64,000 bases of DNA. Origin: a virus. Shown one piece after another: positions 3,808-20,059 of the stretch (positions are counted from its first letter, which is position 1; every line of letters begins with the position of its first letter). The stretch spans positions 35,924 through 99,923 of the IMG/VR virus record IMGVR_UViG_3300019487_000019; one strand, written 5' to 3'. Under the pieces are notes generated by a model. It saw nothing but the letters and a program-made list of their open reading frames with translations. It was not told where the DNA came from and did not search any database. Both the position numbers and the translations under genes were made by a program.

Positions 3808-3860
3808 CAGGAGGTTCCCATAAAATACATTTTGGTGTATTTATGAGGGTTTACCTCCTG
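3808..3860 (-). promoter_or_regulatory. T4-like late promoter core ATAAATA (3838-3844) within a long hairpin that covers the translation-initiation region
   Basis: Minus strand reads CAGGAGGT-AAA-CCCTCATAAATAC-loop-GTATTTTATGGG-A-ACCTCCTG-ATG. Perfect 8-bp outer inverted repeat at 3808-3815/3853-3860. Confidence 0.6.
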
Positions 3861-3862
3861 TT

Positions 3863-4327
3863 TTAGACCAGCAGAAATTCCTTTTTAAAGTAGGTGACTG
3901 TTGCTTGAACCTGTGAAAGAGGGTTATCCTCAAAATCCCAGAGCTCGTGGGCGGTCAGAGTATCAATAAGCGACTGATAGCACCCGCGGGCTTCGGAAAG
4001 GCGCCGGAAGAAGGGATCGCCCAACAATAGGTTGGGTGTGTCTAGTGTCACGTAAAAATCTTCACCAAAATACTTCTCAAGCAGCTTTGCGTAGACCAAA
4101 GCCACTGCAAACGACTTTTGCGGTTGGTGAATCCACTCATTCCAGCTAACTGTGAAATATGAGATGATTTCAGCTTCAAAGTCAGCGTCATCCAACGCTC
4201 GGCCCACGTTGTCGACCGTAACACTTTGCCCTTCCAGAGCAGCCAGTTTCTCATCTGTGAAAAACAGATCCCCAGGATCAGGATTCTGACTATAGTAATA
4301 CTGTTGTCTTATTTGCCATTCTTTCAT
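3863..4327 (-). CDS. Hypothetical protein, last gene of the radical SAM cluster
   Basis: ORF track 3863-4360. Likely start MKEWQ at 4327, overlapping the end of the upstream radical SAM gene. No recognised motif. Confidence 0.7.
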   Translation of the reverse strand: MKEWQIRQQYYYSQNPDPGDLFFTDEKLAALEGQSVTVDNVGRALDDADFEAEIISYFTVSWNEWIHQPQKSFAVALVYAKLLEKYFGEDFYVTLDTPNLLLGDPFFRRLSEARGCYQSLIDTLTAHELWDFEDNPLSQVQATVTYFKKEFLLV

Positions 4328-5231
4328 CTTTGTACCAGTCCAATAAATGTCGAAAGCCATTGCACGAGTGTTCCAACGTTTTCACTTCACGCAAATGTTC
4401 GCTTAAACAGTGTCCAAGATATGGACACGTTGCGCAAAAACCATTCATGAAGACACGCTTACGTTCCTTCTGTGTCCACGCATAGTAATCAAGCAAAGTA
4501 TCTAGTTGTTCAAAATATTCATTGTCGTTGGCATCGAATTCCAACACAGCAAACTTCCCATGAGGCGTGATATACACATGATCATCACTGAAAGAGTTCG
4601 CCTTTCCAGCAAGGCTATTTTCAATCAATTGTTGATTGATGAACTTAAAGCGCTTTTCGATCGGGCTGACGAGCCACTTCTTGACAAATTCCTCATAATT
4701 CCGGAAGGAAACACCATGAGCGTTATGTTGATTCGTTGAATACGGCTTGATTTCAACCGTTTTGACATTTGCAACTGCATTGAGAACGCGAATCATTTCA
4801 TCAACATCTTTCTCAATTAAGCAACGTCCTGCCAACATTAGCACATGAAGATCACCACCGTATTTCATCATGTTGTCAAACACCTGTTCGTGTTGTTGTC
4901 GACAGTCAAAGTCGTAGCTAACGCTAAGAATTGCACGTCGCCTCAAAAACGTTGGATGAATTCGAGAAAGATTTGTGATGATACTGACTTGGCCTGGGTA
5001 GTATCGCTCTATGACATCGAATAGTTCTTCCAGATAGCGTTCTGGTAGAATCGCGACTTCCCCACCATACAGATCGATGTATTCGATCGGTTCAAATACA
5101 CTAATCTCAGCCAGCATCGCATCAAGACGTTCAAGCATCAACAAACGCCTATTCGACAATTGGTCGACACCAAGGTAGCAAAACTCGCAACGAAAGTTGC
5201 AGAAGTATGATGGATTGATCGAAATCTTCAT
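4290..5231 (-). CDS. Radical SAM protein with SPASM/twitch-like C-terminus (rSAM-8)
   Basis: CNFRCEFC (CxxxCxxC), YGGE motif, C-terminal CATCPYLGHC...C. Start MKISINP at 5231 by ATGA overlap; ORF track extends to 5294. Confidence 0.9.
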   Translation of the reverse strand: MKISINPSYFCNFRCEFCYLGVDQLSNRRLLMLERLDAMLAEISVFEPIEYIDLYGGEVAILPERYLEELFDVIERYYPGQVSIITNLSRIHPTFLRRRAILSVSYDFDCRQQHEQVFDNMMKYGGDLHVLMLAGRCLIEKDVDEMIRVLNAVANVKTVEIKPYSTNQHNAHGVSFRNYEEFVKKWLVSPIEKRFKFINQQLIENSLAGKANSFSDDHVYITPHGKFAVLEFDANDNEYFEQLDTLLDYYAWTQKERKRVFMNGFCATCPYLGHCLSEHLREVKTLEHSCNGFRHLLDWYKDERMANKTTVLL

Positions 5232-5683
5232 AGTCGTATATTCGTAGCAATCGACAAACGCATTCCTGTATACGGAGTTACACGATGATCCCACGATCCG
5301 GGAAACAACAGCAAGCTTCCTTGCTCTGGATGGAATGATGTCATCTCTCCATCGGGATGGTACACGATAATATCTCCTTCGCCGACAGGGTTATCATTTA
5401 TGACGTAGTAATTTGCAACAATATCAGCGTGCTTTGTATGATTGTGTTTTAATAAATGGGTATTTGAATTGATCGTTGTTACACACCAACCATCAAACTT
5501 ACAGGGAGTTCGTCCCGTCATTGTTTCGACTGATTCAATAATGAACATTCGCAGCCCCCTAAGCTCCGGCCACTGCTCACTCCAAATATTTTGCGGATCA
5601 TCATAGTTGTACATCATCGGATAGTTCAAGATGCCTTTGACAATATCATTGAATACCGCATCAGCTTGATAGATTTTAATCAT
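5228..5683 (-). CDS. 2OG-Fe(II) oxygenase (TIGR02466-like small phage type)
   Basis: HNH...ANYYV, GSLLLFPGSWDHRVTP and RLSIATN: the HxH...H facial triad plus terminal RxS. ATGA overlaps on both sides. Confidence 0.8.
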   Translation of the reverse strand: MIKIYQADAVFNDIVKGILNYPMMYNYDDPQNIWSEQWPELRGLRMFIIESVETMTGRTPCKFDGWCVTTINSNTHLLKHNHTKHADIVANYYVINDNPVGEGDIIVYHPDGEMTSFHPEQGSLLLFPGSWDHRVTPYTGMRLSIATNIRL

Positions 5684-6420
5684 CGTAGACGAAGGTGTTG
5701 CAATAATGGATTGCATTCACGATACATTTGATACACCTGACACATCCATGTTGTGTTTACGGCTTGGCGAAACGAAAGCTCTCCATACACACAACCAAAA
5801 TGGCGATCCACGTCACGATAAATTAGTTCAGCAATTCGATTGTGCTCAAGCATCGTCCAAATCTCTGTCATATCATCTTGGATGTTCCAGATTGTGAAGA
5901 ATCGCTCCCACGTCTTAATGATTTCTCGAATGTCGTAGTTCTCCAGCACATATTCGTAGTTGTCTTCTGTAAACATCGAGTCAAACATCCACGAAAGTCT
6001 GGGATCGGTCTTTGCGTATGACAACTGCGCGAGATAATCCGAGCGATCTACTTTCAGATCAGGAAATAAAGTTTCGAGATCTGGCAATGCACGAATAATG
6101 TGTTGCTTTAATGATAGCATCTCTTCGATGAACAATCGATGCGAAGTGTTTTTGACCACTGCCAGTGTCGCTGTTGCGTATCGAGATTCGGGATTAGCCA
6201 AGAAATCCCCTAACAGATGATCAAGTCGTAGAACTGGTATGTATCGTCCCGGCTGAATAACATCATATGCGGAAGTAAAGTTTGCATATGGTGCAGGCAT
6301 ATACTGATTTGTTTTGCCCGTCACATAATCGTGAAACAGAGTTGCTTTGTAAAGGTCATACATGACCTTGCAGTGTGGTTCTGCAAATAGTTGCTTGTGT
6401 GTAGCGATAAACTCGTTCAC
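5680..6420 (-). CDS. Hypothetical protein, paralogue of 14307-15377
   Basis: GTG start in a GTGA overlap. C-terminal RDVDRHFGCVYG matches RDVARGLGCVYG of the 14307-15377 product. Confidence 0.75.
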   Translation of the reverse strand: MNEFIATHKQLFAEPHCKVMYDLYKATLFHDYVTGKTNQYMPAPYANFTSAYDVIQPGRYIPVLRLDHLLGDFLANPESRYATATLAVVKNTSHRLFIEEMLSLKQHIIRALPDLETLFPDLKVDRSDYLAQLSYAKTDPRLSWMFDSMFTEDNYEYVLENYDIREIIKTWERFFTIWNIQDDMTEIWTMLEHNRIAELIYRDVDRHFGCVYGELSFRQAVNTTWMCQVYQMYRECNPLLQHLRLR

Positions 6421-7472
6421 GCTGCCTCCTTGACACCACCAAAATTGATCTCGAGAATTTCTGTTGCAATCGACTTCATAATCTTGCAGTGAGGCTCCAC
6501 AAGATTATGTTCTTTCAGGTCCTTGACAGTCTTACGGCAGCCGTTGCAAATCTTAAACATCGGGCACGTCAAGCATTCTTCTTTCATGCTTATTAAGGAA
6601 GGATCACTTTGCAGTGGGGTAAAGAATTCTTTCCCGTAAATTTCACGGAAGAATGTAATTGGATGCGTTCGATCATCCGCAATTGCACCACACGAATAGT
6701 AATCACCGCTCGGGTTTAACGCTCGAATGTTTTCATCACACTGACGGTGTTGGGGGCACATTGTGTGAAGCCCTTTCAATCGCTGAACCATTTGTTTTGT
6801 ATTGAATTCCCACGGCGTCAATCCTTGCCGATACACTTCAATATATGTTCGATAGATTTTTGACAACAAATAAGGCTTACTTTGAACACCTGATGCGTTT
6901 GCATAATTGAGTTTGCATTCAACGTTCATTCGCTTTGCCAAACGAACGTTATCCAATGCTGTGTCCTCATTTTCATCACTAATCACTGAAATGAAATCTG
7001 GCCGATAACCAATTCGTTCAAGGAACAAATTACTGACCTGCCAGAAGATGTCTTCTGTGAACACTTGCTTCTCTGTAATCCGGCGCGTATCACCGTAATT
7101 GAAAGATGTTGTAATGCCAACACGTGGATGTTTGAATAACTCTTCCCACATCTGTGGCTTTTTGAAGAACGCCCATAAATTTGTCGTCAGACTTACCGTC
7201 GCTTTGTACTTTCGTTGGTCAAGGAATTCTATGATTTGCCAATAATAGTCGGGCTTTACCATTAGCGGATCCCCACCATTGACAATAATTGTCGAAGTGT
7301 TAGGAAAGCGATCAAGAAAGTCGTAGATATATTGATGATCGAGTACGGCTGCTTTGTCATCCGTAATATTGGTCGATGAACAGAACGTGCACTTGAAGTT
7401 GCAAGCCTCTGTTGGCTTGATAATTAACTCCATTGCACGTGGGTCTGTGCTGTCAATCAATTTATGCAACAT
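6417..7472 (-). CDS. Radical SAM/SPASM protein (rSAM-7)
   Basis: IKPTEACNFKCTFC, NGGDP, CPQHRQC...YYSC, CLTCPMFKICNGC...HC. Start at 7472 or 7433 is uncertain. Confidence 0.92.
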   Translation of the reverse strand: MLHKLIDSTDPRAMELIIKPTEACNFKCTFCSSTNITDDKAAVLDHQYIYDFLDRFPNTSTIIVNGGDPLMVKPDYYWQIIEFLDQRKYKATVSLTTNLWAFFKKPQMWEELFKHPRVGITTSFNYGDTRRITEKQVFTEDIFWQVSNLFLERIGYRPDFISVISDENEDTALDNVRLAKRMNVECKLNYANASGVQSKPYLLSKIYRTYIEVYRQGLTPWEFNTKQMVQRLKGLHTMCPQHRQCDENIRALNPSGDYYSCGAIADDRTHPITFFREIYGKEFFTPLQSDPSLISMKEECLTCPMFKICNGCRKTVKDLKEHNLVEPHCKIMKSIATEILEINFGGVKEAA

Positions 7473-8040
7473 CGAAAACTCGTCTTTCGAAAATTGTTGG
7501 AGCGATGGGCTTCCCATAGGCTTCCATTAGAGCGCCGCGACGTGAGGCTATTTTGAGAGCCGCCTGACAATCAAACCGACAAGGAAAGAAGCTGATTGTG
7601 CGATTGTGAAGATCAGGTGTCATATACTTGCTGAATTGTTCGCCAGGAATCGACTCCGATAGAGCCGAACTTAGGTAATTATACTTGTGCATTACATGCT
7701 TCACCGATATGGCAAAAGCTTTGATGCAACATATGGGATAGTCATAATAATATCCAAGATTGCCGTGATCATCTTGATATTCGGCTTGAATTAGCTCCTG
7801 CACGACCATGACGTCGGCCGCAACATATATCTCGTAGTCGTCGTTGTGAAAATATGTGGGGTCGCTTCCACCATACACATCAATATCCTGTCGTTCTGTA
7901 GGAACGATACCAAACTGAAGTCTCCTCGCGTGAATCAAGTCGATAGCATTCGCCAAATGTTCTTTACGAACTGATATGCGGCAAGCAGCGCGGCGCTTTT
8001 CACTGACATCAATCAGATCGAGAAAATCACACGACGACAT
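7462..8040 (-). CDS. DUF483-like Cys-rich protein
   Basis: YDYPICC and FFPCRFDC resemble the GYPxCC / PCxxxC signature of DUF483-type proteins. Start uncertain; ORF track extends to 8172. Confidence 0.55.
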   Translation of the reverse strand: MSSCDFLDLIDVSEKRRAACRISVRKEHLANAIDLIHARRLQFGIVPTERQDIDVYGGSDPTYFHNDDYEIYVAADVMVVQELIQAEYQDDHGNLGYYYDYPICCIKAFAISVKHVMHKYNYLSSALSESIPGEQFSKYMTPDLHNRTISFFPCRFDCQAALKIASRRGALMEAYGKPIAPTIFERRVFDVA

Positions 8041-9088
8041 TGTACTGGGTAGCATTTTTCGGATCCAATATAGTGTTAAAGAATTCTTTGTATAGGCAAG
8101 TTGCCATCTCTTCGCGGTTTGTCCAGTCAGCCTGAACGAAGCAACGGAACGAACATCGATCAAAGTGCTCACAACTTAAGCAACCATATTTGTCGAGGTG
8201 GGCTTGAATGATATTAGCATTGCTCTTATAGTCAATTTCCGTGTTGAAGTCGTCTTGATCATACTTCAGGTAGCGACATTTTACTTCACGACCATCCGGT
8301 AGTAGTGTTAGTTTATTCAACGAGTAGCATGTCATCGTGTTGAATCGATGATGTACCCAATCACTTACAGGAGCGACATTTGGATAATGTTCCGCTAGGA
8401 ACAGAAACACTTCAAGGTGCTCGCGATCACTCGGTATCATGTGTTGTGAAAGTCGTTCTGGCACATAATAGTCAAAGTACAAGGGGTATCGAGTGTAGAG
8501 ATACTCAAATTCCTCGTCTTTTTCGGTCATGATTCGCTTAATTGCTTGCTTTGTTAGCACAAAGCCAATCGTGTAGATTTGACTGCCAAACCGTTCCAAG
8601 TTCTGATGGAACAAGTCCTTTTTGGCAACGTTTAGAGGGCGTCCTGCGAAGTCATAACTGGTCGAAATGTTCGATTTGATGCCAAGCAGGTGCAATGTAT
8701 CGAGCAGTTTTTGGACCCTCGTCCACTTCGTGAACACGAGGTTCGTGACCCAATTGAAAACACACGTTTTTCCAGCCTGATTTGCGTGGGCATCAACATC
8801 GAGGGCAAAGTTGAGGTAATCGATGAATAGATCGTCTGAAACCGCATCATTAAACAGTTCACCACCCATCATGTTGATGATGAATTTGTCCATCCGGCTA
8901 TTGCGAATAAACTCGTTCACACGATCGACCTTATTCATCACCGTATTCATTCCTACTTTCGAGTTGTGATCTTGCCCACAAAAGGCACACGCAAGATTAC
9001 AAAACTCAAAGAAGTGCAGTTCAATTTCTGCTGCTTCATTGACTTTGTTTTTCAGGACCTGATTGAGTAGGTCTTCATGTGTATTCAT
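8027..9088 (-). CDS. Radical SAM protein with SPASM/twitch-like C-terminus (rSAM-6)
   Basis: CNLACAFC, MGGELF, C-terminal C...C...CLSCEHFDRCSFRC...C. Confidence 0.9.
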   Translation of the reverse strand: MNTHEDLLNQVLKNKVNEAAEIELHFFEFCNLACAFCGQDHNSKVGMNTVMNKVDRVNEFIRNSRMDKFIINMMGGELFNDAVSDDLFIDYLNFALDVDAHANQAGKTCVFNWVTNLVFTKWTRVQKLLDTLHLLGIKSNISTSYDFAGRPLNVAKKDLFHQNLERFGSQIYTIGFVLTKQAIKRIMTEKDEEFEYLYTRYPLYFDYYVPERLSQHMIPSDREHLEVFLFLAEHYPNVAPVSDWVHHRFNTMTCYSLNKLTLLPDGREVKCRYLKYDQDDFNTEIDYKSNANIIQAHLDKYGCLSCEHFDRCSFRCFVQADWTNREEMATCLYKEFFNTILDPKNATQYNVVV

Positions 9089-9489: not shown

Positions 9490-10228
9490 TACTCACTCCC
9501 ATCGGCTTTGCGAATCGAATAGGCTGATTTCGAATCTGCCCCGCAAACACTAATGCGGTCAATTCCGTCCAGTCTTCGAATGTACTGGCCTTGCTCAAAA
9601 ATCCATAGCCGGCGCGGTCGAATCGAAGGTGTGCTAGAATCTCACTGCGCTGAAATAAAGCACTGATGTTCTCTGGTTTGAAAATCTTTTCGATATATCG
9701 TTGTGCTGTTGCCCACGGCACGTGTAGGGTAAGTGTCGTATCGTCGAGAACAGCATCATAACCGACAAGAACCGTATCGTCCTCGAAGCGAATGTGTGAT
9801 CCCATCATCATATAGGTCGTGTTGCACGACAGCTCGGTAATCGGCGTCTGCAAATCAACTGTGGCGAGTGCAAAGTGTCGAGGAAGTGTAAATCGATCGT
9901 AAGCATTATTCGCAAGTCGAAGCGCGAGAGTCTTATCTTCTCTCGATTGATTACGGCCCGATAATTGTTCCATTGTGTGTTTGTGAATATCAAATTGTCT
10001 CATCAACCATTGTTCGCGCGTCCATTGTTTCTGATGATACTCTTGTTGAACCCAAGCCTGAACCAATTGCTGATACGTCAAATTATCGTGCGGATATGGA
10101 AGTGTTCCTAACGAATAACGATACAGACCAGGAAAATAATCAGCACTCGACAAAATCGTCTGAAACAACTCTTCGTCGTTTATCGACGCAAGTTCACGTA
10201 AATCAATTTTTGATATTGTTGGCGACAT
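9470..10228 (-). CDS. Hypothetical protein in the radical SAM cluster (252 aa)
   Basis: Long ORF overlapping both neighbours. No recognised motif. Confidence 0.7.
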   Translation of the reverse strand: MSPTISKIDLRELASINDEELFQTILSSADYFPGLYRYSLGTLPYPHDNLTYQQLVQAWVQQEYHQKQWTREQWLMRQFDIHKHTMEQLSGRNQSREDKTLALRLANNAYDRFTLPRHFALATVDLQTPITELSCNTTYMMMGSHIRFEDDTVLVGYDAVLDDTTLTLHVPWATAQRYIEKIFKPENISALFQRSEILAHLRFDRAGYGFLSKASTFEDWTELTALVFAGQIRNQPIRFAKPMGVSNVNKIS

Positions 10229-11279
10229 TCATTGCTCTCTTTGCAAGAATGCAGTCTTTTATTTGATAACGGTCCATCATGTGGAGGATTCCCCGATCAG
10301 CACACGACCCCAGATATTGACACGTTCCACATTCTTTCTCGTTGGATTTCCTGTATTCATTTAACAGGAGATTATCCTCGAATTTCTCGATTTCTTCAAT
10401 TGACCATTGAGCAAGAGGGATTCGATAATGCGGGTCAAACGAGACATATCGCTCGTAAAACATTGGTGAATAGTACAGTTCCCCATTACGAAAATTGTAT
10501 TGTTTTTCAACCAAGCTATCGGTCAAGCGTCCCACACTGAACCGAACGAATTGCACTGTTTCAGGGTCTACATTGTCGTTAAACAGAACCTTAATTTGTT
10601 GTGCTGCTCGTTCAAATTCTTCGCGCGAAAGGTTCGTTTTTCGACCAATACTGAAATTGAAGTCAATGTCTGTGTTGTACATTTGCTCAATCAGGTTATG
10701 AAGGTAGACATAGTCATGGAGCAGTTCGCTAATTCGCGTCTGGGAATAATCAAACACGTTGAACAAGGCATGACTTGTGGGCGGCTGACGAAACCTCTTG
10801 AGAATTTGATGACGGGTTGCCTTCACGTGTTCAAGATAACTAGTGTTGTGTATTTGTCGAAGATCAAAAGTGATATTAATCTCGATCGGTTTGTCCGAAT
10901 AGTGTTCGTTGAAAACATCAATAACATCGGTGGTGCTTGGAGTTTCTGCTAGAAAGGCACTTGCAAAGCTGATTTTTTCAAAGCGTTTTAAGAGATCAAT
11001 TGTTCGCCAATCAGCAAGAACAGAAGCAGTATTGCTCGAGGAAAACAAGTCTGTTGGTCCAACCGTTGCAATGAATGGCTGATAATTTTTCCGGATTGCT
11101 GTTTCTAGCAGAACGGTTAAGTTCTGATAATCTTGTTGAAGAAAGCCTGTTTGCGCTGTCTTATCGACGAAACACCCCTCACACTTCCACTGACAGCCAT
11201 ACAGAACATCAAAATTTAGGTCGAGGTACAGTGTATGTGCTTCGGCGTAGCTGACACCAATTTTGTCTCTATCGCTCAT
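10203..11279 (-). CDS. Divergent radical SAM protein, PTD subtype (rSAM-5)
   Basis: CQWKCEGC. GPTD in place of GGE. C-terminal ECGTCQYLGSC...C. Tandem paralogue of 11269-12387. Confidence 0.8.
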   Translation of the reverse strand: MSDRDKIGVSYAEAHTLYLDLNFDVLYGCQWKCEGCFVDKTAQTGFLQQDYQNLTVLLETAIRKNYQPFIATVGPTDLFSSSNTASVLADWRTIDLLKRFEKISFASAFLAETPSTTDVIDVFNEHYSDKPIEINITFDLRQIHNTSYLEHVKATRHQILKRFRQPPTSHALFNVFDYSQTRISELLHDYVYLHNLIEQMYNTDIDFNFSIGRKTNLSREEFERAAQQIKVLFNDNVDPETVQFVRFSVGRLTDSLVEKQYNFRNGELYYSPMFYERYVSFDPHYRIPLAQWSIEEIEKFEDNLLLNEYRKSNEKECGTCQYLGSCADRGILHMMDRYQIKDCILAKRAMNVANNIKN

Positions 11280-12387
11280 TACTTTCTACCTTGGTCAACT
11301 TAAAGTTGATTGCATCGAGAGCATCTTTGGCGATGACACAGCGCCTGATGCCAAACGCATCCATTAATGTCAGGACGCCTCTATCGATACACGAACCTAG
11401 GTAATGGCAGGAACCACATTCTTCTTTGTTGCCGATGTTCGCATACTGAGTGACTTGTGCAGTATGCTCCCACTGCTCGAACTCTCGAGCTGTCCATTCT
11501 TTGATTGGGATCTCGAATTCAGAACGGAAACTGACAAATCGTTCATACAGCAATGGGCTAGCATAGAACCTTCCGTTGCGATAGTTGTACTGCTTCTCAA
11601 TAAGACTATCGGTTAACTTGCCAAACGAAAAACGTAGAAATTTGACTTTCTCGCCAGAGATTGCATCATCAAACAACTCCGAGATCTGCAACACAGTCTT
11701 CTCAAATTCTTCTCCTGGCAGATCATCCTTTCGTCCAAGGCTAAAGTTGTAGTCGATCGTTGTTTCGAACAAGTGATTAATCTTGTGGTGTAAGAAGTCG
11801 TAATTCTGTAGAGTCTCGGCAATCTTTGTCGCACTATAATCAAACACATTGAAGATGCCAAAGGTGCGGATTTCCGAAAAGGCCGTCAGGCGGGCTTGGA
11901 GACTATCTTTATTGCGTGCTAGCAATTCAAGGTATTTCTGATTGAGAATTTGGGCGGGCTCAATAATGATATTAATCTCCAACTCCATATCTTTATAGAG
12001 TGTGTTTAAAACCTTCACGATGTCATCCACACGAGGCGCATCCACATCGAGGTATGTTGTTTGGAGGCTTAGTCGTCGAAAGCGATTCAAGATTGCAACA
12101 GTGGCAGGATCACGAAGGAAAGCAGCAGTGTTATTTGCAGCAAGGAAGTCGGTTGGAGCAATGAAGGCGATAAACGGCTTGTAGCTACTACGCTCAAAAT
12201 CATCAAGAAGCTTCACAAACTGCGTTGTGTAGCCCCCAATGCCATCTTGGATCTCTTTATTAACATGGCACCCACGACAAGACCACTGGCAGCCGTTTAG
12301 AACCTCAAAATTGATATTGAGGTAAAACGTATTTGCATCTTTAAGGTGTCGTGAAGCGAGATACTGTTGGTCAATGTAGCTGTCCAT
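11269..12387 (-). CDS. Divergent radical SAM protein, PTD subtype (rSAM-4)
   Basis: CQWSCRGC. APTD in place of GGE. ECGSCHYLGSC...C. Shares LTDSLxEKQYNxRNG..Y.SP..YER.VSF with 10203-11279. Confidence 0.8.
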   Translation of the reverse strand: MDSYIDQQYLASRHLKDANTFYLNINFEVLNGCQWSCRGCHVNKEIQDGIGGYTTQFVKLLDDFERSSYKPFIAFIAPTDFLAANNTAAFLRDPATVAILNRFRRLSLQTTYLDVDAPRVDDIVKVLNTLYKDMELEINIIIEPAQILNQKYLELLARNKDSLQARLTAFSEIRTFGIFNVFDYSATKIAETLQNYDFLHHKINHLFETTIDYNFSLGRKDDLPGEEFEKTVLQISELFDDAISGEKVKFLRFSFGKLTDSLIEKQYNYRNGRFYASPLLYERFVSFRSEFEIPIKEWTAREFEQWEHTAQVTQYANIGNKEECGSCHYLGSCIDRGVLTLMDAFGIRRCVIAKDALDAINFKLTKVESNER

Positions 12388-13205
12388 TATGTTCCCTGAA
12401 GTGCCTCAATCATTTTTTCAACAGTTGTCTGCTTAGTACACAAAGCGACCAAGAAACTGAAGAATGAATTCTCAGGAACATCGAAGTAGTGGATCAGACG
12501 CTTTCCTTTGAACATATACTCAGTAAACTGTTGCTTGAAGTATTTACCTGGTGTCGGGGCTGGAATAGAAAAATATAGTTCCAGGAACAGCGGAATGCGG
12601 AAAAGATTGACAACATTACTTCCAATATACAGCGGATCGTCAATCTTTTCATATTTGTCAAAGAATCCCGGAAACGCTGTTTCGAACGCTGGGATAGCTA
12701 CCTGTGATCCATCATCGGTTGTTTCAACAAGCTGCACCGAATACATTGCAAACAACATCATAGAGTCAAGGAACGTATACCAGCGCTCCATCAGAGCTGG
12801 ATTCTTCGCAGCAAAGGCTTTCATTTCGTCAAGCGATAACGGAACAAATGGTACAATGTCTCGTTCAATGTTCACGCCCTTGTTGTGTAGGAGAACAGCA
12901 GCTGTTAGAAGCGTGAGTCCTTTTGTTTCGTTGATGTTTCGCGACTCCATAAAGTCCTTGAGAAGCTCCATCCGTTCTTCAACGGACGTGTCAGCGAAGT
13001 CAACTTCTGCGGGAAGATCAAGGTTCGAAATATAGGTGAGGAACACCTTTCCCTTGACAGAACTCTTGGCGTAATCTATTACGAACAATAGATTCTTATT
13101 GATAAAGAATTCTTTGATTTGGTCCATCGTCAGTGGTGCAACCACTCGGCGAATTTCCCTCTCAACCGGTTCGATTTCTTCAACCTGTTCAATTTCTTCT
13201 GCCAT
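12387..13205 (-). CDS. Hypothetical protein in the radical SAM cluster (272 aa)
   Basis: Long ORF with GGAG RBS and a TAATG overlap with the downstream gene. Confidence 0.75.
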   Translation of the reverse strand: MAEEIEQVEEIEPVEREIRRVVAPLTMDQIKEFFINKNLLFVIDYAKSSVKGKVFLTYISNLDLPAEVDFADTSVEERMELLKDFMESRNINETKGLTLLTAAVLLHNKGVNIERDIVPFVPLSLDEMKAFAAKNPALMERWYTFLDSMMLFAMYSVQLVETTDDGSQVAIPAFETAFPGFFDKYEKIDDPLYIGSNVVNLFRIPLFLELYFSIPAPTPGKYFKQQFTEYMFKGKRLIHYFDVPENSFFSFLVALCTKQTTVEKMIEALQGT

Positions 13206-13214
13206 TATCGTCTC

Positions 13215-14303
13215 CTAACCTTTGTGCAACTCAATCAAGTTGTCCTGAGCAATTCGATACTTACGAGCAAACTGTGGTAAGTTCTCTTGTTGAAAGCGAA
13301 TGACGGCTTTACTCAATGGACATTCGTCTTCATCAGGCCAAAACAAATCTACTTCACAGTTGCCGCCACACACTTCAAAAAATTCACACTTGTAGCACAC
13401 ATCTGCCATCTTCTCATCTTTACGACGGACGATTTCATCCAGAGCTTTTGTTGCGAATGCATCCCAGTTTGAATACATTTCATCAACATCACTGATCGGC
13501 TCATAATAGGTCTTGTCAGGACACAATCCAACAGACCCCCACGGGTTCATCGTGAATGTCCGCTGAGCACAACAATTACACTTACAGTCGAGCGTATGCC
13601 CCTCTTGAAGACTTTTTGTGAACATATCAACCTGAGGCATTGACCACGATACATCATTTTCCACATAATACTCAACGAGTTTTTGCAGCCATGCTGCCCA
13701 AGGTACGTTTCGGACTTTAAAATTACGGGTCTTTTGGTCGAAGGTGGTTAACAGTTCGAAGTCAATCGACTTCACCCCCGCAAACCTTTTTGCTAACTCT
13801 ATGGGGTCCAACTCAAGTAGATGTTTTTGGGTTGTAATGGCAATCGCAATATTGACCTTTTCGTCGAGGAGTATCTGGAGATTCTTCCAGAAAAGAGCCT
13901 CTTGATTAGCGGTTGTAAAGCGAATTTTATAGTCCCAACTCACACCAATCTCGTTATCACAGCGCGTACGAAGGAAGTCAAGAAACTCGTCTGTAATGTT
14001 GTACATCAGATTTGTTTGTGGAACAATGATTCGCGTGGTTTCGTCGAAGATTGTGTCGATTTGATCACACACTTCGTGCATGTATGGAATTGGCGCTAGA
14101 AAGGTTTCCCCACCATGCAAATAGAACGTTGCTTTCTTTGGATTGACGTTCTGACGAATCGCCTTAAAGTATTTCTCAGTCGTGCTAAGTTCAGCAACTT
14201 TAATTGGATCGCGATTTCCTGCCGTAAAGCAGTGCGTACAATTTAGATTGCAGCCTTGAACGATTCGAGTGTAGATGACATTGAAGTCAGTGTTGAAGAA
14301 CAT
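13215..14303 (-). CDS. Radical SAM/SPASM protein (rSAM-3)
   Basis: CNLNCTHC, HGGETFL, CKCNCC...GLCPD, CYKCEFFEVCGGNC...CP. Paralogue of 16889-18019. Confidence 0.93.
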   Translation of the reverse strand: MFFNTDFNVIYTRIVQGCNLNCTHCFTAGNRDPIKVAELSTTEKYFKAIRQNVNPKKATFYLHGGETFLAPIPYMHEVCDQIDTIFDETTRIIVPQTNLMYNITDEFLDFLRTRCDNEIGVSWDYKIRFTTANQEALFWKNLQILLDEKVNIAIAITTQKHLLELDPIELAKRFAGVKSIDFELLTTFDQKTRNFKVRNVPWAAWLQKLVEYYVENDVSWSMPQVDMFTKSLQEGHTLDCKCNCCAQRTFTMNPWGSVGLCPDKTYYEPISDVDEMYSNWDAFATKALDEIVRRKDEKMADVCYKCEFFEVCGGNCEVDLFWPDEDECPLSKAVIRFQQENLPQFARKYRIAQDNLIELHKG

Positions 14304-14306
14304 GGC

Positions 14307-15377
14307 TTATGCCAATTCGTATGTTCCCAAAACACTTGTCGTACCTTCACGCTTCATGCGATAGGCCCAAGTTAGAAACACCTGACACATACGGAGACGA
14401 TAACGGCCAGCACCATACACACAACCTAGGCCACGTGCCACATCGCGTTCGAGTAGTTGTTCGTACTTGTGATCATAGATTAGATCAATCAATTCAGACA
14501 TATCTTCATATGGAGCGCCCCACGCCTCGAGAACTCGTGCATAGAGCTGCTTGAAGATTTTACGATCGTAGGTGGCTTCAACGTATTTTGGATTTTGATA
14601 TGAAACTTTTGAGTCAACCATCCAACGAAGATATTCGTTGGAGCCAAACGAAGTAAACAACAAATGATCGAGGTCAGACAGATTGATTTGTGCATCTGGC
14701 GGAAGCACAGTATTGATGTCGCCAATCCCGTTAATCAGATCAGCTTTCAGAACTTCAAGTTCTTGAACCCAGTTGGCCCAAGTAAACCGTTCCACTTTTT
14801 CTAGGACAACCTGGCGCATGGGACTCTTGACTGGATCACGCAAATAGTCAGCAAGCTGGTACTCAAAACTTACCAGATGCTTTGGCAGTTTTTGTAGGAA
14901 CAATGCAACAGGTGTCTCTTGATAAAGTTTATCAAAGGTTTCGCGCGACATAATTGTCAATTCACGTGCTGCAACACGTCCTTGCTCATTGCTATCTTCA
15001 TCATATAAGAATGACTTGAACCAACGATCTTGTGTAAACATTTTGTGCAATTCGTACACGCTGTCGACCGTTGGATTCTTGAGAATGCTTTTCCAATATT
15101 GTATCTGTAGTGCTTGATACAGGTTGGGCTCTACGTACAAAACGTTTCGTGTATCACCGAGTTTCGTTCCATTGAGATAACTCCAGATTTTTGTCTTGTC
15201 GCCACCAAGAAATTGTTTCGCAAAGTCATCAAATGATGCATGCACTTGAACGAACCGAAGGCCTGGATCAAGAAGATCTATTTTGGACCAACGACTGCTG
15301 ATAGCAAGATTGCTATAGCGAATTGTTGTCAATGCGGCATCAATATCAAGGTAGACATCACCAAATACATGAAACAT
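14307..15377 (-). CDS. Hypothetical protein immediately downstream of the candidate substrate gene
   Basis: Start MFHVFG at 15377 with GGAG RBS; ORF track extends to 15434. C-terminal half is paralogous to 5680-6420. Confidence 0.75.
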   Translation of the reverse strand: MFHVFGDVYLDIDAALTTIRYSNLAISSRWSKIDLLDPGLRFVQVHASFDDFAKQFLGGDKTKIWSYLNGTKLGDTRNVLYVEPNLYQALQIQYWKSILKNPTVDSVYELHKMFTQDRWFKSFLYDEDSNEQGRVAARELTIMSRETFDKLYQETPVALFLQKLPKHLVSFEYQLADYLRDPVKSPMRQVVLEKVERFTWANWVQELEVLKADLINGIGDINTVLPPDAQINLSDLDHLLFTSFGSNEYLRWMVDSKVSYQNPKYVEATYDRKIFKQLYARVLEAWGAPYEDMSELIDLIYDHKYEQLLERDVARGLGCVYGAGRYRLRMCQVFLTWAYRMKREGTTSVLGTYELA

Positions 15378-15382
15378 TTTCT

Positions 15383-15907
15383 TTATCTCCGTCCACGAGC
15401 ACCATGACACGACGAGTGGCATGATGAATGACATGCAAGTAATTGAACAGTCGATGCTTCAGTTGCTGCTCGATTGGTATTCAAAGCTGTAATATACGTT
15501 GAAAGAGCTGTGCCGCTTGCGTCGGTACTGGCAACAGGAGCACCAGGAGGATTAACAAGTGCCTGGTATGCAGAATTCAAAATCGTTTTCCCCGAACCAA
15601 GAAACGTACAGCCGATACAATTAAACCAAAATTGCGTGTCTCGAATGCGAGAAGAAGCCAGAGCAAAGTTATATAAAGCACTCGCCAATCCTGAAGCAAC
15701 AAGATCAGAAGCCGTAATGTCGCCGGCGGTAATATCTTGAGCTGGTGTATTACTCAAATAAGCCGCAGCATAAGCAGGATAGCCCGCATACGTAAAAGGA
15801 TTACCTGACAGATTGTAGACAGTGCCAGCGTTTGCGGCAGCAATAACCGTCGTATTAAATTCGCTGACTACACTTGCTTTCGTTGCATCAGTTCCTGCGG
15901 TCGGCAT
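15383..15907 (-). CDS. Candidate radical-SAM substrate: Ala/Thr/Ser-rich protein with C-terminal CHSSCHSSCHGARGRR tail
   Basis: Strong GAGGAG RBS. 174 aa. C-terminal Cys-x3 / His-x-Ser repeats resemble RiPP core peptides. Embedded among eight radical SAM genes. Confidence 0.75.
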   Translation of the reverse strand: MPTAGTDATKASVVSEFNTTVIAAANAGTVYNLSGNPFTYAGYPAYAAAYLSNTPAQDITAGDITASDLVASGLASALYNFALASSRIRDTQFWFNCIGCTFLGSGKTILNSAYQALVNPPGAPVASTDASGTALSTYITALNTNRAATEASTVQLLACHSSCHSSCHGARGRR

Positions 15908-16889
15908 TCATATTCTCCTCAAGATAGCATGGAAGGCCCATCTCGCGAGCAAGAGCAAAAAACCCTTTCCCGTGGCATGTTGACAGATTCGGACAACTAT
16001 CGCATGCATCAATAATAGGGTGATTATCCGCCTCCATTATCGAATAAGCTGACAAGAAACCGTCAAAAGATGCCTGTTCTAACGCATATTTATGGAGGAA
16101 AACGTATTCATCGAACGGCATAATCGGCGATACGTAAATCTTTCCATCCTTGAACGTAAACGCTGGTTTTCGCAGCATCGTTCTGCTATTGAACCTTGGA
16201 TCACCATCTTTTACGTATAAGTCCGAAAACTCACGCAAAAGCTTATAGCTCTCCAGCATCATTTTTTGCCTCTTTGTCGGGCCAATCAATGAATTGTAGA
16301 GGAAAGTAAAGTTAACCTCAACAATTTTGTCGGCCGAAAGGCGGTCAACGAGTTCATGCAGCCGTACAATCTCTTCAGGTGAAAACTTCACCCCAACGTT
16401 CACGGCAAGATTGATAACGGTTGATGGATATACCTGAACGATCTGCTGGATCTTTTCCCTTAACATTGTTTCGTACGTTGTTTCAAACAGATGATTGAGA
16501 ACAATGTTAACTTGAAGCTCTACTTTAGACCCATTACGTTCGATTAGGTCGAAAACATCTTTGTCCCATTCACCAATCAGCGTTGAAGCAATGCCAACAT
16601 ATCGAAAGCGCCTTGCAAGTTCGGCAAACTCTTCGCTTCGAAACAGATCTTTGTTCGATTCGTTCTCAAAGATATCGGTAGGGAGGAGGTAGCAAGTCTC
16701 GAGACTGTAGCCGTGTTGCTGAAGTTCCTGACTCAATGTAAGAGCTGGTTCATACGTTCCGAAAGTATTTCCGTCTCGTTTGTAGAAACACCCACGACAC
16801 CCCATGTTGCAGAGATTGAGAAGAAACATTCGAAACTCAACAAGTCGATAAGGATCAGTATATTTCCCATACAGGTTTTGTAGTGGCAT
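15888..16889 (-). CDS. Divergent radical SAM protein, PTD subtype (rSAM-2)
   Basis: CNMGCRGC. LPTD in place of GGE. IYVSP. CDSCPNLSTC...C. Confidence 0.8.
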   Translation of the reverse strand: MPLQNLYGKYTDPYRLVEFRMFLLNLCNMGCRGCFYKRDGNTFGTYEPALTLSQELQQHGYSLETCYLLPTDIFENESNKDLFRSEEFAELARRFRYVGIASTLIGEWDKDVFDLIERNGSKVELQVNIVLNHLFETTYETMLREKIQQIVQVYPSTVINLAVNVGVKFSPEEIVRLHELVDRLSADKIVEVNFTFLYNSLIGPTKRQKMMLESYKLLREFSDLYVKDGDPRFNSRTMLRKPAFTFKDGKIYVSPIMPFDEYVFLHKYALEQASFDGFLSAYSIMEADNHPIIDACDSCPNLSTCHGKGFFALAREMGLPCYLEENMNADRRN

Positions 16890-18019
16890 TATTCCTGTCC
16901 CATGAACTCGCCGAGCACCTCACGGTATAGTTGTGTGTTGCGTTCTTGTTTGAAATGTTTCATCAACGATTTCGGTGAGGCGCAAATATCACCTTCCCAA
17001 GCAAGCTGATGACAATCACCATTGCAGACATCAAATACTTCACAAGAGTAGCAGAGAGGATTCCGTGCACTTTCGCATGCAATATTATTCAAACGACCTG
17101 GTGAGGTTAGCAACTCAACAATATTGTCGTCGATCGAACCGAACGTGTTCTCAACGGCAGAATTTGGGCATCCACCAATTTCGCCAGTTGCATTGATAGT
17201 GAAAATCTTTTGCTCACAAGAGCGGCAACGACATCCTGAATGCGTTGTAAAAACAAAGCTTGACAAAATTGAATTGAAGAACAAATTCTCAAAGTGTTTA
17301 TGCATTCCGTGCTGAACTGTTTGCTGCCACATCTTGACAAACCACGCATCAAGTTCTTTATTCGTCGGGAAAATATGTGGATTCAAATTCGCATTTCCGT
17401 TTGGTGTGATCCGTTCGAGGTGCAAGTAGCGAACGCCGAGATCAGCGACAAACTCGAGGAGTTCAATTGGCTCACGTTCAACAACAGACTTACTCAATGA
17501 TACCATTAACGTCACGTCCATCCCCTCTTGTCGAAGGACACGAACATTATCTCGCCACAAGTCTTCTTGTTTCTGATTCGAGAAACGAATCCCTTTGTCC
17601 CACGAAGTAGCAAGACCATTTGTGAATGCTTGTTTCATGAAGTCCAATTTCTCGTTATCGAGTTTGTAGACAAGGTTCGTCGTTGTTGACCACCAAAGAT
17701 TTGGCCAAAGGTCTTTACATTCTGCCCAAACAGTTCGCATATCACTGACAGGTGCAAGGAAGGGTTCTCCGCCGTGGAATGCAACGTGTGCGTTTGTAAG
17801 GATGGGGGCAACTTCTTTCAAGCGGTAGAACCAACTAATCGTTTTCGGAACGTTGAAGTAGATCTTTTTACCATTAATTCCATTTGTAAAGCAATGTGCA
17901 CAATTCAACTGACACGTTTCAGTCGTTTTCAGATAGACCATCAATTCCTTCAGATGGACGTATGGAGCAGGGGCAATTGCCTTTTTGGCTCGATGAAACG
18001 TAATTGTCGACAGGGTCAT
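16889..18019 (-). CDS. Radical SAM/SPASM protein (rSAM-1)
   Basis: YLKTTETCQLNCAHC, FHGGEPFL, CRCRSC...GGCPNS, CYSCEVFDVCNGDC...C. Confidence 0.95.
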   Translation of the reverse strand: MTLSTITFHRAKKAIAPAPYVHLKELMVYLKTTETCQLNCAHCFTNGINGKKIYFNVPKTISWFYRLKEVAPILTNAHVAFHGGEPFLAPVSDMRTVWAECKDLWPNLWWSTTTNLVYKLDNEKLDFMKQAFTNGLATSWDKGIRFSNQKQEDLWRDNVRVLRQEGMDVTLMVSLSKSVVEREPIELLEFVADLGVRYLHLERITPNGNANLNPHIFPTNKELDAWFVKMWQQTVQHGMHKHFENLFFNSILSSFVFTTHSGCRCRSCEQKIFTINATGEIGGCPNSAVENTFGSIDDNIVELLTSPGRLNNIACESARNPLCYSCEVFDVCNGDCHQLAWEGDICASPKSLMKHFKQERNTQLYREVLGEFMGQE

Positions 18020-18040
18020 GTAATTATTCCTTGCTCCACA

Positions 18041-18069
18041 AGTCTACCACCTTTAGCAAGTCCCATCAA
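18041..18069 (-). promoter_or_regulatory. Putative sigma70 promoter for the radical SAM cluster
   Basis: TTGATG - 17 bp - TAGACT with extended -10 TG, about 20 nt upstream of the rSAM-1 start. Confidence 0.5.
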
Positions 18070-18072
18070 CAA

Positions 18073-19338
18073 TTATGCCCACTGTGCTGGGAAGAACTGT
18101 TTCCAATTGACGTCAGAACCACTTGAACCAAAGAAAGTTGGAAAACTTACTGCTGTTGTCATTGCAACCCAAGCATGGCTCGTCGCTGGGTTAACATAAA
18201 TGTCGCCCGGTTTATGAGAGACTGCAGCACCACTAACATAAGCATTTGCGAATCCCGTTGAACCACTTGATGGAGTACCAACCAGAGCGCCAAGACCATT
18301 GACATAAGCAATTGATGCAGCATTGTTTGAAGGAGCAGCAGGATACACTTGAACATCTAGACCCGTAATAGGGTTCGCATCCATTGCAAGACTTCCCGTC
18401 ATATTCGGCGGTGTGTTGAGCGCCGTGCCTGCGAGACGAACATACGTGCTATTCAAAACTGCAGTTGAGGCCAAGCTATCAGTATACGATTTGGTTGCAG
18501 CATCTTGTGCGCCAACTGGGTTTGCCAGGTTGGTGATCCTAAAGCCGCCCATATCAAAGTTATTTGGACCAACCCATCCTTGTGTTCCACTCGACAGAAT
18601 GATACCCACCCAAGATGTGCCGTCCCAAATATTCAGTTGTTCGGAATCTGTTTCCCACCAGAAAGCACCTATTGCTGGATCCGGTGGAGGATTTGTCGAA
18701 AGTGAAACGTACGAGATTGGAAGTGGAGTCCAGTCTTGTTCGAATTCATCGTACATCAACACGTTTCGTTCTGGATAGTCCGTACCGTTGACAGGTGGCG
18801 TTGTGCTCTCCGCATGTGTGCGCTCAACCCATCCTGCTGGAACTTGCTGGAACATACTGTAATAACCATACAGTGTGTTTGCTTTGATTGCTTGACCGAA
18901 AGCGTCGGTTGCTGGTACGAAAGGACCTGCTCCTGTATACCAATATGCACCGATCGAAGCTGCTGGCGCGGTATTTGACGTAGCGGAGCCAGCACCACCG
19001 TTCACAAGAAAGTCAGTTGGAGCTGTTTGCCACACGGCTGGATTGTCTGGATCAAGACGATACCAATAAACAATCGGACCATTCGTATCACGACGATAAA
19101 ACTTTGTTCGAAGCCACAACTGACCACCAACGCCAAACGGTGGTGGCGTTGCACCATTCAGGTTTTCTGCAATGCGCAGCAAGTCTTCATCAACAGCCTC
19201 GCCCCATTCAAGGGCACCCCGACCATACAAACGAAGGTTTGATGCAGATGACGTTCCGCCAGGTCCATTAAATCCACCAGGATTGATAGTGAACCCACCT
19301 CGGAGCGGATCGCTGAAATTGATTGAGTACGAAGACAT
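18073..19338 (-). CDS. Tail fibre-like virion structural protein (421 aa)
   Basis: N-terminal LYGRG..EWGE...AENL...GQLW motif. DMGGFRITNLANP and ATKSYTD fibre-shaft modules. Preceded by TATAAATA. Confidence 0.7.
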   Translation of the reverse strand: MSSYSINFSDPLRGGFTINPGGFNGPGGTSSASNLRLYGRGALEWGEAVDEDLLRIAENLNGATPPPFGVGGQLWLRTKFYRRDTNGPIVYWYRLDPDNPAVWQTAPTDFLVNGGAGSATSNTAPAASIGAYWYTGAGPFVPATDAFGQAIKANTLYGYYSMFQQVPAGWVERTHAESTTPPVNGTDYPERNVLMYDEFEQDWTPLPISYVSLSTNPPPDPAIGAFWWETDSEQLNIWDGTSWVGIILSSGTQGWVGPNNFDMGGFRITNLANPVGAQDAATKSYTDSLASTAVLNSTYVRLAGTALNTPPNMTGSLAMDANPITGLDVQVYPAAPSNNAASIAYVNGLGALVGTPSSGSTGFANAYVSGAAVSHKPGDIYVNPATSHAWVAMTTAVSFPTFFGSSGSDVNWKQFFPAQWA

Positions 19339-19346
19339 GTAAATTT

Positions 19347-19380
19347 CCCCTCAAATAAGGCTTGTTGAGGGGTATTTATA
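19347..19380 (-). promoter_or_regulatory. T4-type late promoter TATAAATA (19373-19380) followed by an RBS-sequestering hairpin
   Basis: Minus strand TATAAATA-CCCCTCAA-loop10-TTGAGGGG-AAATTTAC-ATG. The 3' arm of the 8-bp stem is the Shine-Dalgarno sequence. Confidence 0.75.
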
Positions 19381-20059
19381 CAGATAGCTCCGCTACATAT
19401 TGCTTTATGACTGCCAGTTCATTCGGGTGCTTTTCTAGCTGTTCCACCCAGTAATCCGGTCTGATGATCGTTTCAACGATGATTTTTTGTTCAGGTGTTG
19501 CTCGATCACGCAAAACTTGCTTGAATTTACGGCTGCATAGTAGTAGCCACGGTGAAAGTTGGCGACGGCGCACTAGCTGAACGACATCATTCAAAGGAAT
19601 GTGGTCGAAAATCTCACTAACGTCGACATTTCGCTTATCAGCTAGATCGAGAAGTGTTTGTACAGATAGTTTCGCTTGATCTAACGGTTGAGATGTTCGA
19701 TCTAAATGCTCGATGTACATCGAATATACCTCATCGTTGGTCCAAATCGTTGGTTGTATATCTTTTTCGCGCATTAGCCAGATGAATTTCGCTGGAAATG
19801 GCAGGCCAACAGCCTTGACGTGCTGTGTAAAATTGATAAATGTTCGATAATACTTCGAAGCAAGGAATGACTTTGCTGGTGGTGGCATTCGTCTTTGGAC
19901 CTTCATCCATTCTTGATAGTAATTCCACGCAGCTTGCCCCTCTGGCGTTTGAAATTCTTCAAGTCGCTTCATCTCCTTGCACTTGTGCTGCAAGTATCGG
20001 TGTTCTAGGCTGAACACCTTATGACAATATTTGCACGTATACCGTGCTTCTGCGTTCAT
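19376..20059 (-). CDS. Hypothetical protein with N-terminal C2H2-like zinc finger
   Basis: YTCKYCHKVF...QHKC. Start MNAEAR at 20059 by ATGA overlap with the gp62-like gene. Confidence 0.7.
   Translation of the reverse strand: MNAEARYTCKYCHKVFSLEHRYLQHKCKEMKRLEEFQTPEGQAAWNYYQEWMKVQRRMPPPAKSFLASKYYRTFINFTQHVKAVGLPFPAKFIWLMREKDIQPTIWTNDEVYSMYIEHLDRTSQPLDQAKLSVQTLLDLADKRNVDVSEIFDHIPLNDVVQLVRRRQLSPWLLLCSRKFKQVLRDRATPEQKIIVETIIRPDYWVEQLEKHPNELAVIKQYVAELSV

Follow-up and report, generated by a model that had tools for sequence, protein, structure and literature searches.

A 64,000-nucleotide stretch of viral DNA, positions 35,924 to 99,923 of IMG/VR record IMGVR_UViG_3300019487_000019 (the window, from whose first letter positions are counted unless a locus is named), encodes a protein of 174 amino acids (aa) that ends in three Cys-His repeats. 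This exposed, invariant Cys/His tail sits on a folded, structural-looking protein. The protein is best explained as the substrate of a conserved radical S-adenosylmethionine (radical SAM) maturation cassette found in large phages and predatory Bdellovibrionota, a reading given a probability of about 0.6. Support for a substrate role comes from comparative genomics, which couples the tail gene to a radical SAM enzyme of the SPASM type. The protein family and its cassette are real, strongly conserved and unannotated, and a literature search found no publication describing the tail or its cassette.

The argument rests on four features of the window:

15383..15907, minus strand: gene of the 174-aa Cys-His-tailed protein (open reading frame (ORF) and translation), an orphan alpha/beta body with a C-terminal tail.
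15383..15433, minus strand: tail coding stretch, C159 to R174 (CHSS-CHSS-CHGA-RGRR) plus the TAA stop, a candidate modification site of invariant and near-invariant columns.
15915..15920, minus strand: Shine-Dalgarno sequence GAGGAG, 7 nucleotides (nt) 5' of the ATG and inside the 3' end of the upstream radical SAM-like gene.
16889..18019, minus strand: radical SAM/SPASM enzyme of 376 aa (CxxxCxxC, GGE and SPASM Cys set), the conserved partner and most likely the modifying enzyme.

Translation of the ORF, from its ATG start to a C-terminus of ...LLACHSSCHSSCHGARGRR and a TAA stop, confirms the 174-aa gene with the CHSS-CHSS-CHGA-RGRR end that an earlier, sequence-only reading of this DNA had described, with the strand corrected to minus. 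Cysteines occupy positions 159, 163 and 167 and histidines positions 160, 164 and 168, the latter being the only three in the protein. Two of the repeats contain the His-Ser-Ser triplet emphasised in that reading, but the third does not follow the His-x-Ser pattern in this copy (H-S-S, H-S-S, H-G-A).

The C-terminal cassette had been expected to be conserved among homologues, and it is. In an alignment of 89 members with a mean column identity of 20%, the only invariant columns are C159, H160, C163 and H164, and conservation reaches 90% or more at C167, H168, R171, R173, R174, S162 and R89. Four homologues with 42-48% identity to the 174-aa protein carry LLACHSSCH[SV]SCHGARGRR unchanged. A profile search with the tailed family through 1.84 billion representative proteins (E <= 0.001) returned 271 clusters, and CHxxCHxxCH with a short end terminates 147 of 154 proteins among the best 150 profile matches and close homologues. 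The stronger expectation that only the tail is conserved goes too far, because most profile matches align over the whole body, even though the tail is the strongly conserved element. Likewise, the His-x-Ser pattern is frequent rather than fixed: in a logo of 229 non-redundant tails, the position two residues after each His is Ser in 80-91% of cases and Asn or Ala in the others.

The basic end of the tail is dispensable, and the Cys-His repeats are its core feature, since a large clade of tailed proteins in viral contigs found via the radical SAM enzyme (L108-L144) ends in CHSNCHGSCHGS[IL] and lacks RGRR. A few tails in the same contigs have three His but two Cys (e.g. ...CHSACHSSHSSRNRR). Nor are there always three repeats (L086, L094, L085): four CHxS units occur in some bacterial copies, from Bacteriovoracia, and five CH units, together with an insertion, in a Dysosmobacter contig.

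At the DNA level, a degenerate pattern of the tail matched 47 viral contigs, and in all 47 the motif lies at a protein C-terminus directly before the stop. The bodies in front of it measure 124-319 aa and are mutually very different, with two tandem copies of the tail gene in some loci; other members of the tailed family have bodies of up to 500 aa. In a 596-Gb genome collection, where our own calculation gives a chance expectation of about 0.1, a relaxed pattern found 47 matches, about 38 of them true C-terminal tails and 27 of these from Bdellovibrionota. The tail is thus far beyond chance. One false positive of the relaxed pattern, in an Actinokineospora chromosome (L088), is an out-of-frame, low-complexity RH/CH repeat without radical SAM neighbours, and about eight further genome matches were also discarded as false. 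Among 108 distinct tail DNAs, TGT and TGC as well as CAT and CAC are about equally used, Ser is encoded by both AGY and TCN, and Arg by all six codons. Since synonymous codons vary this freely, selection acts on the peptide and not on the DNA, which rules out a DNA-level repeat or recombination site.

The tail also connects the protein to an existing but unannotated phage family. Residues 149-174 match the C-terminal end of the 186-position family phrog_35144 (PHROGs v4) at E 1.5e-6, the likeness being confined to the tail. By this shared end, an unnamed family with a (CHxS)x3-RxRR tail includes phrog_35144, RSL2 ORF068 and Atu_ph07 gp170.

The sequence-only reading had also tied the tail gene to radical SAM genes, and this link proved tight in phages and bacteria alike. 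In viral and bacterial loci found via the tail, a homologue of the 376-aa enzyme (40-61% identity) usually lies directly upstream of the tail gene. Downstream follow genes of the phrog_20767 type (p272, 272 aa in the window) and the phrog_36207 type (p356, about 356 aa), and then, about 2 kb further, a radical SAM gene of the type that is 353 aa long in the window. Of the non-redundant viral loci found by the tail alone, 12 extend for at least 3.5 kb to either side, and each of these has a radical SAM-like ORF no more than 4 kb away and a gene of the p272 or p356 type no more than 3 kb away. In the reverse direction, a gene ending in (CHxx)2-3 lies directly downstream in 44 of 48 viral loci found via the 376-aa enzyme (with at least 700 nt of sequence downstream of it), and the four exceptions are the most divergent homologues of the enzyme. 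The two-way genomic coupling of tail gene and SPASM enzyme is therefore strict. Sequence conservation is much higher among homologues of the 376-aa enzyme than among the tailed proteins. The window shows the full combination, a (C-H-x-x)x3 C-terminus beside a SPASM enzyme of this type (rSAM376) and genes of the phrog_20767 and phrog_36207 types.

The enzyme has the expected catalytic features. Its CxxxCxxC (C35, C39, C42) and GGE (82-84) are invariant in 22 homologues, as is the SPASM Cys set (C264, C267, G278-x4-C283, C322-x2-C325-x5-C331-x3-C335 and C345). It scores 25.5 bits with the SPASM model TIGR04085 (cut-off 27), and its best NCBIfam matches, DynA, anSME, DarE, DarW, PapB and YhhB, reach 27-50 bits against cut-offs of 340-650. 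The nearest solved structures are 8VPO, ChlB (9GM3) and anSME (4K36), with E values of 7e-7 to 3e-5. Judged by these motifs and scores, it is a bona fide enzyme of the SPASM maturase type outside every curated family.

A tail of this composition might instead be an unmodified metal site, in which the Cys and His, three of each, coordinate Zn, Fe or Ni, perhaps across the subunits of an oligomer, while the radical SAM enzymes act elsewhere, for example on the fibres. Six classic ligands, including every His of the protein, lie within 10 residues, the tail is modelled by AlphaFold2 as a low-confidence helix with a predicted local distance difference test (pLDDT) score of about 60, and fibre genes flank the cassette. 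Complex prediction likewise lent no support to binding by the enzyme, which formally is no evidence either way. His motifs at the fibre tip of phage T4 bind iron. However, metal-binding tails usually tolerate changes in spacing and composition, whereas in this family hundreds of bodies that are otherwise unrelated carry tails of one fixed spacing and C-H order. A metal site also does not fit the coupling with one SPASM enzyme in both directions, seen also in bacteria without nearby fibre genes, and it accounts neither for the RxRR end nor for the Ser that is conserved after each His. A tail that binds metal without being modified is considered unlikely.

For the body, AlphaFold2 with the 89-sequence alignment predicts an alpha/beta domain with a mean pLDDT of 90 and a predicted template modelling (TM) score of 0.83. 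Searches of the PDB found no match to this fold (Foldseek best E 2.7; VIA-align best Z 4.4 over 48,161 chains), and structural matches in BFVD and the AlphaFold DB were only uncharacterised members of the protein's own family. Among the weaker structural matches was the 296-aa Atu_ph07 protein, whose likeness to the body fold is slight (E 3.7e-3; TM score 0.54 by query and 0.34 by target; root-mean-square deviation 10). Pfam and NCBIfam gave no match to the 174-aa protein. Neither did tblastn of the protein or megablast of a 12-kb block against GenBank phages, a set that possibly lacks the records nearest to the window genome, and the ESM Atlas, whose own models are poor here, gave no usable match. 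The body and the 272-aa partner, each modelled at a pLDDT of about 90 and without structural relatives outside their own families, make two candidate new folds. Other body types also carry the tail, namely RSL2 ORF068, a 257-aa marine type and a 124-127-aa type. In two loci (L022:11196-11953 and L040:5458-6215), two tandem short tail genes of this last size (124-127 aa, CH[ST]SCHYSCHGSRGRR) directly follow a fibre gene, with partners of 350 and 236 aa and between four and six radical SAM-like genes of the phrog_31457 type after them.

On the AlphaFold2 model, the N-terminal part is a folded domain without a known fold and not a removable leader, since a body folded with this confidence is no leader peptide; the sequence-only reading had suggested as much, with virion docking as a possible role of the domain. 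The alternative is a giant leader, comparable to nitrile-hydratase-like leader peptides, from which a modified tail of 16-20 residues would be cut and released at lysis as a small ribosomally synthesised and post-translationally modified peptide (RiPP). In its favour, strong conservation is limited to the tail, with bodies that vary, the Cys-x3 spacing resembles the cores of SCIFF and ranthipeptides, and the strong ribosome-binding site is typical of precursors. Against this, annotation of the cassette genes revealed no protease, exporter or immunity-like gene within the cassette. The tail logo contains no cleavage motif of the Gly-Gly type and instead shows a beta-strand-like T-V-T-V pattern that continues into the first Cys. 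The body, moreover, is a conserved and confidently folded domain, even up to 500 aa long in some members, and has the composition of a structural protein. Release of the tail as a peptide is therefore improbable.

Composition and translation signals also bear on the role of the protein. Residues 1-155 consist to 49% of Ala, Thr, Ser and Asn and to 8% of charged residues, compared with 33-35% and 12-14% in the flanking fibre-like proteins and 20-25% and 21-26% in the neighbouring enzymes. The body is thus closer in composition to the fibre-like proteins than to the enzymes, in agreement with the earlier description of it as Ala/Thr/Ser/Asn-rich like the neighbouring virion proteins. In a scan of 13 genes (7462 to 19338), GAGGAG was the top Shine-Dalgarno match, but it is level in score with the AGGAG of the 272-aa gene, so the claim of the strongest ribosome-binding site in the cluster is true only as a tie. 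The internal CIGC (C97 and C100) is present as described but is not conserved in four close homologues, and it was rejected as a part of the system.

These observations further bear on the possibility that the protein is an accessory rather than a substrate, serving as an Fe-S or sulfur donor, scaffold or electron carrier for radical SAM enzymes whose true substrate is, for example, the fibre. Cys/His ligand sets can hold Fe-S clusters. The genome has many radical SAM genes and probably Fe-S supply genes (PMC5332604, which lists 12 radical SAM genes along with cas4, grx and paaD in the 183-kb T4-like Tara genome TARA_ERS488813_N000010 and proposes no function for the radical SAM genes). The uncharged, fibre-like composition is unlike that of known carriers, however, and the strong ribosome-binding site implies stoichiometric rather than catalytic amounts. 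Bodies that vary in size and sequence beside enzymes that stay conserved are a better fit for a substrate or structural protein. An accessory role is thus improbable.

If the 174-aa protein is the substrate, the SPASM enzyme encoded at 16889-18019 would bind the exposed tail and carry out 5'-deoxyadenosyl radical chemistry on the Cys/His repeats, probably with help from the 272-aa and 356-aa partners. These partners may present the tail to the enzymes, in a role analogous to that of HxsD or RiPP recognition proteins, and the tail Cys may serve as ligands of an auxiliary cluster, as happens in sacti- and ranthipeptide synthases. The further radical SAM paralogues and a 2-oxoglutarate (2OG) oxygenase would probably act after the SPASM enzyme. 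The products would most likely be either thioether links derived from Cys or C-C cross-links centred on His, comparable to those of sacti/ranthipeptides, triceptides or HXS, resulting in a rigid, possibly metal-binding C-terminal knob. More tentatively, the mature protein might be made late, together with the tail fibres, and be a fibre- or virion-associated part of the host-recognition apparatus.

Several points weigh against this proposal. The modification of the tail by the SPASM enzyme, its chemistry and the location in the virion are what we infer from sequence, and a predicted complex of the SPASM enzyme with the 174-aa protein scored 0.01, a value that is evidence neither way. A tail so rich in Cys and His could simply bind metal. 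The short-bodied subgroup (L017, L022, L040, L053, L055) has no enzyme of the rSAM376 type close by; its place is taken by other radical SAM-like paralogues. The option of triceptide chemistry is weakened because the Ser of the His-x-Ser motif is only 80-91% conserved. For a place in the virion, there is only a hint: most virion proteins of Agrobacterium phage Atu_ph07 map to clusters that include 'CDS 170-215' (PMC6102473), a range that hints at gp170 being one of them. Finally, the Bdellovibrionota cassette lies in some cases on contigs of 1.3-2.8 Mb, amid housekeeping genes and with no phage structural genes nearby. With such chromosomal cassettes, a purely virion-specific role is not required and the system is not restricted to virions.

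The cassette is also present in cultured phages. Ralstonia phages RSL2 and RSF1 carry it, with RSL2 ORF068 being 186 aa long and ending in ...CHSSCHTSCHGSRGRR, as do Burkholderia phages FLC6, FLC8 and SURPRISE13, Sinorhizobium phage Phosso and Pseudomonas phage pPa_SNUABM_DT01. In Atu_ph07, gp170 (296 aa, ending in ...CHSSCHASCHNSRSRR) lies between the radical SAM protein gp171 and gp169, which is of the phrog_20767 type. The S13 and FLC6 papers contain no proteomics on the tail gene. In two Bdellovibrionota genomes (L176:5765-7006 and L178:12449-13576), the cassette adjoins a divergent gene of 375-413 aa with a prepilin-like N-terminus and a coiled-coil end, with two further proteins alongside, one conserved and about 200 aa long, the other of 112-116 aa and with a twin-arginine-like start; housekeeping genes flank this block, indicating that it is not a prophage. 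Phages and Bdellovibrionota both attack bacterial cells from outside. It is tentatively proposed, as a possibility that may well prove wrong, that they share a dedicated radical SAM system that cross-links the (Cys-His-x-Ser)x3 tail of a fibre-associated protein, creating a novel covalent and possibly metal-binding structure required for recognising or breaching the envelope of their prey.

In the window, the cassette and the fibre-like genes on either side of it lie on the minus strand, from 19338 down to 1597. Apart from the 376-aa enzyme and the tail gene listed above, this block and the motif in front of it comprise:

19373..19380, minus strand: TATAAATA, a motif like a T4-type late promoter, in front of the 421-aa gene; a motif scan of 3000-20500 found no other one upstream of the operon.
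18073..19338, minus strand: tail-fibre-like structural gene of 421 aa that heads the operon (PHROG tail and tail-fibre families, E 1e-8 to 1e-9).
15888..16889, minus strand: radical SAM-like paralogue of 333 aa with CxxxCxxC (ORF), between the SPASM enzyme and the tail gene.
14307..15377, minus strand: conserved protein of about 356 aa, phrog_36207 type (E 9e-19), directly downstream of the tail gene.
13215..14303, minus strand: second radical SAM/SPASM enzyme, 362 aa (Pfam Radical_SAM above cut-off; similarities to NCBIfam SPASM-type maturases).
12387..13205, minus strand: conserved protein of 272 aa, phrog_20767 type (E 5e-62).
10203..12387, minus strand: two paralogous radical SAM-like genes of 372 and 358 aa, phrog_31457, with homologues in Ralstonia phages RSL2/RSF1 and Burkholderia phage FLC6.
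Between this pair and the 353-aa radical SAM gene, minus strand: two unknown proteins of 252 and 134 aa.
8027..9088, minus strand: radical SAM/SPASM-like enzyme of 353 aa (phrog_1802, E 2e-37).
7462..8172, minus strand: DUF483 protein of 236 aa (Pfam DUF483, 29.1 bits against a cut-off of 25).
6417..7517, minus strand: radical SAM gene in the distal part of the cassette.
5680..6420, minus strand: 246-aa protein whose C-terminal part is common to phrog_36207.
5228..5716, minus strand: 2OG-Fe(II) oxygenase.
4290..5294, minus strand: radical SAM gene.
3863..4360, minus strand: unknown protein.
1597..3807, minus strand: tail-fibre-like structural gene of 736 aa that closes the block (phrog_11660 tail protein, E 2e-24).

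This gene order recurs in close relatives (L002-L007), and the gene context in phages is late and fibre-linked. PADLOC returned only a generic viperin-like radical SAM similarity. The members of the cassette differ in how constant they are. Homologues of the 333-aa paralogue have 68-71% identity in the syntenic L002-L007 and 43-44% in L010 and L026, and are elsewhere at 21-26% or absent, so that this gene is present in only part of the family. The 272-aa type is the most constant non-enzyme partner, and in most loci its gene immediately follows the tail gene. The 353-aa type, which most loci have at a distance of about 2 kb from the tail gene, is the second widely co-occurring radical SAM type. 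The phrog_36207-type gene adjoins tail genes in both phages and Bdellovibrionota. Its longest ORF in the window (14307-15434) overlaps the tail gene by 52 nt, but since homologues begin MFH[LV]F, the start is probably the ATG at 15377, 5 nt past the stop of the tail gene and behind a GGAG.

A sequence-profile search of the PDB gave no match to the 356-aa family. For the 272-aa protein, AlphaFold2 gives a pLDDT of 90.4, and structural matches are confined to its own family. Against the PDB, its best results were a Foldseek E of 0.05 and a Z of 5.0 over 56 residues, with no match in the profile search. The Z 5.0 match covers 56 residues of the N-terminal beta-alpha-beta unit of a sialyltransferase, which was too weak to make the protein a glycosyltransferase.

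If the tail is modified, this large, widespread and unannotated family would be a new class of proteins matured by radical SAM enzymes, a type of maturation that is known for short peptides (RiPPs) and for a few proteins such as sulfatases, QhpC and, since 2026, HxsA. A cross-linked, fibre-associated tail would be the first enzyme-installed radical cross-link in a protein of a virus particle. The family spans hundreds of clusters, from marine T4-like phages and the jumbo phages of plant pathogens (RSL2, RSF1, FLC6, Atu_ph07) to Bdellovibrionota. Pelagimyophage genomes are reported to differ by radical SAM cassettes inside their host-recognition cluster (PMC7029224), and the proposal, if true, would explain the 6-15 radical SAM genes in the host-recognition clusters of many large phages, which have been noted and left unexplained (PMC5332604, PMC7029224). 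With a body and two partners that lack a known fold, new chemistry or new modes of recognition are plausible, and the cultured phages that carry the cassette make the system directly testable.

Among known systems, several share part of this arrangement. The sacti- and ranthipeptide systems (CteB/SCIFF, PapB/freyrasin) and QhpD/QhpC resemble it in having a radical SAM/SPASM enzyme with a full Cys set for auxiliary clusters, and in sacti- and ranthipeptide systems the Cys of the substrate are likewise found close to the C-terminus, every fourth residue. QhpC illustrates that a protein subunit can be a radical SAM substrate. Unlike in sacti- and ranthipeptides, however, the candidate substrate here is a folded protein of 174 aa (pLDDT 90) that comes without a leader, protease or exporter, and it has an invariant His beside each Cys, which those systems do not require. 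Its likeness to the core of a short precursor ends at the Cys spacing. The PapB equivalog NF047865 scores 33 bits against a cut-off of 340.

For the triceptide maturases (XyeB, GrrM/OscB, FxsB, YhhB, ChlB), the likeness lies in the aromatic/His-x-x triplets, which fit a three-residue pattern, and the 376-aa enzyme has a weak similarity to YhhB, FxsB, GrrM and ChlB. The corresponding models NF041707, TIGR04269 and TIGR04261 (YhhB, FxsB and GrrM/OscB) reach 23-38 bits against cut-offs of 310-445. The invariant Cys fall outside the triceptide pattern, and the residue two after the third His is Ala in this copy. The enzyme anSME (TIGR03942, PDB 4K36) is a minimal radical SAM/SPASM enzyme whose target is a Cys in a protein of full size, as proposed here, and the last repeat, C-H-G-A-R, resembles its target C-x-P/A-x-R, with Gly replacing Pro/Ala. 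In contrast to anSME targets, the 174-aa protein is not a sulfatase and belongs to no Pfam family, and the clade that ends in CHGS[IL] lacks the Arg. The anSME model TIGR03942 scores 44-49 bits against a cut-off of 349, and TIGR04115, for the CXXX-repeat peptide maturase, scores 16.4 bits against 350 over the N-terminal part only.

The closest published analogue is the HXS antiphage system, in which HxsA is matured by the radical SAM enzymes HxsB and HxsC with HxsD (Nat Commun 2026, PMC13128918). HxsA is a 214-aa protein with five H-x-S repeats and a covalent change of +8 Da on S-H-R-S-S (PMC13128918), a sequence that lines up with C-H-S-S-C here. Both systems combine a full-size folded protein, at least two radical SAM enzymes and small partners, and the tandem motifs of the tail resemble the His-x-Ser type, with H-S-S, H-S-S and H-G-A in this copy and Ser at that position in 80-91% of tails. 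They differ in that an invariant Cys precedes every His here and the repeats lie at the extreme C-terminus, with neither a peptidoglycan-binding domain nor a signal-like N-terminus, and in their setting, a phage fibre operon here and a bacterial defence island in HXS. The HxsA model TIGR03979 found no match at E <= 10 in the 183-kb genome. The HxsC model TIGR03977 scored at best 33.9 bits (cut-off 267.9), on the radical SAM gene at 6417-7517, and control genomes give such generic matches too. By these scores, the cassette is not a member of HXS. It stands outside the described families because none of the models for HxsA, HxsC, PapB, YhhB, FxsB, GrrM, anSME and the CXXX-repeat maturase recognises it. 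The cassette thus belongs, on present models, to no described family and appears to work like a radical SAM protein-maturation system, for which HXS is a precedent in the maturation of a full-size protein on H-x-S motifs.

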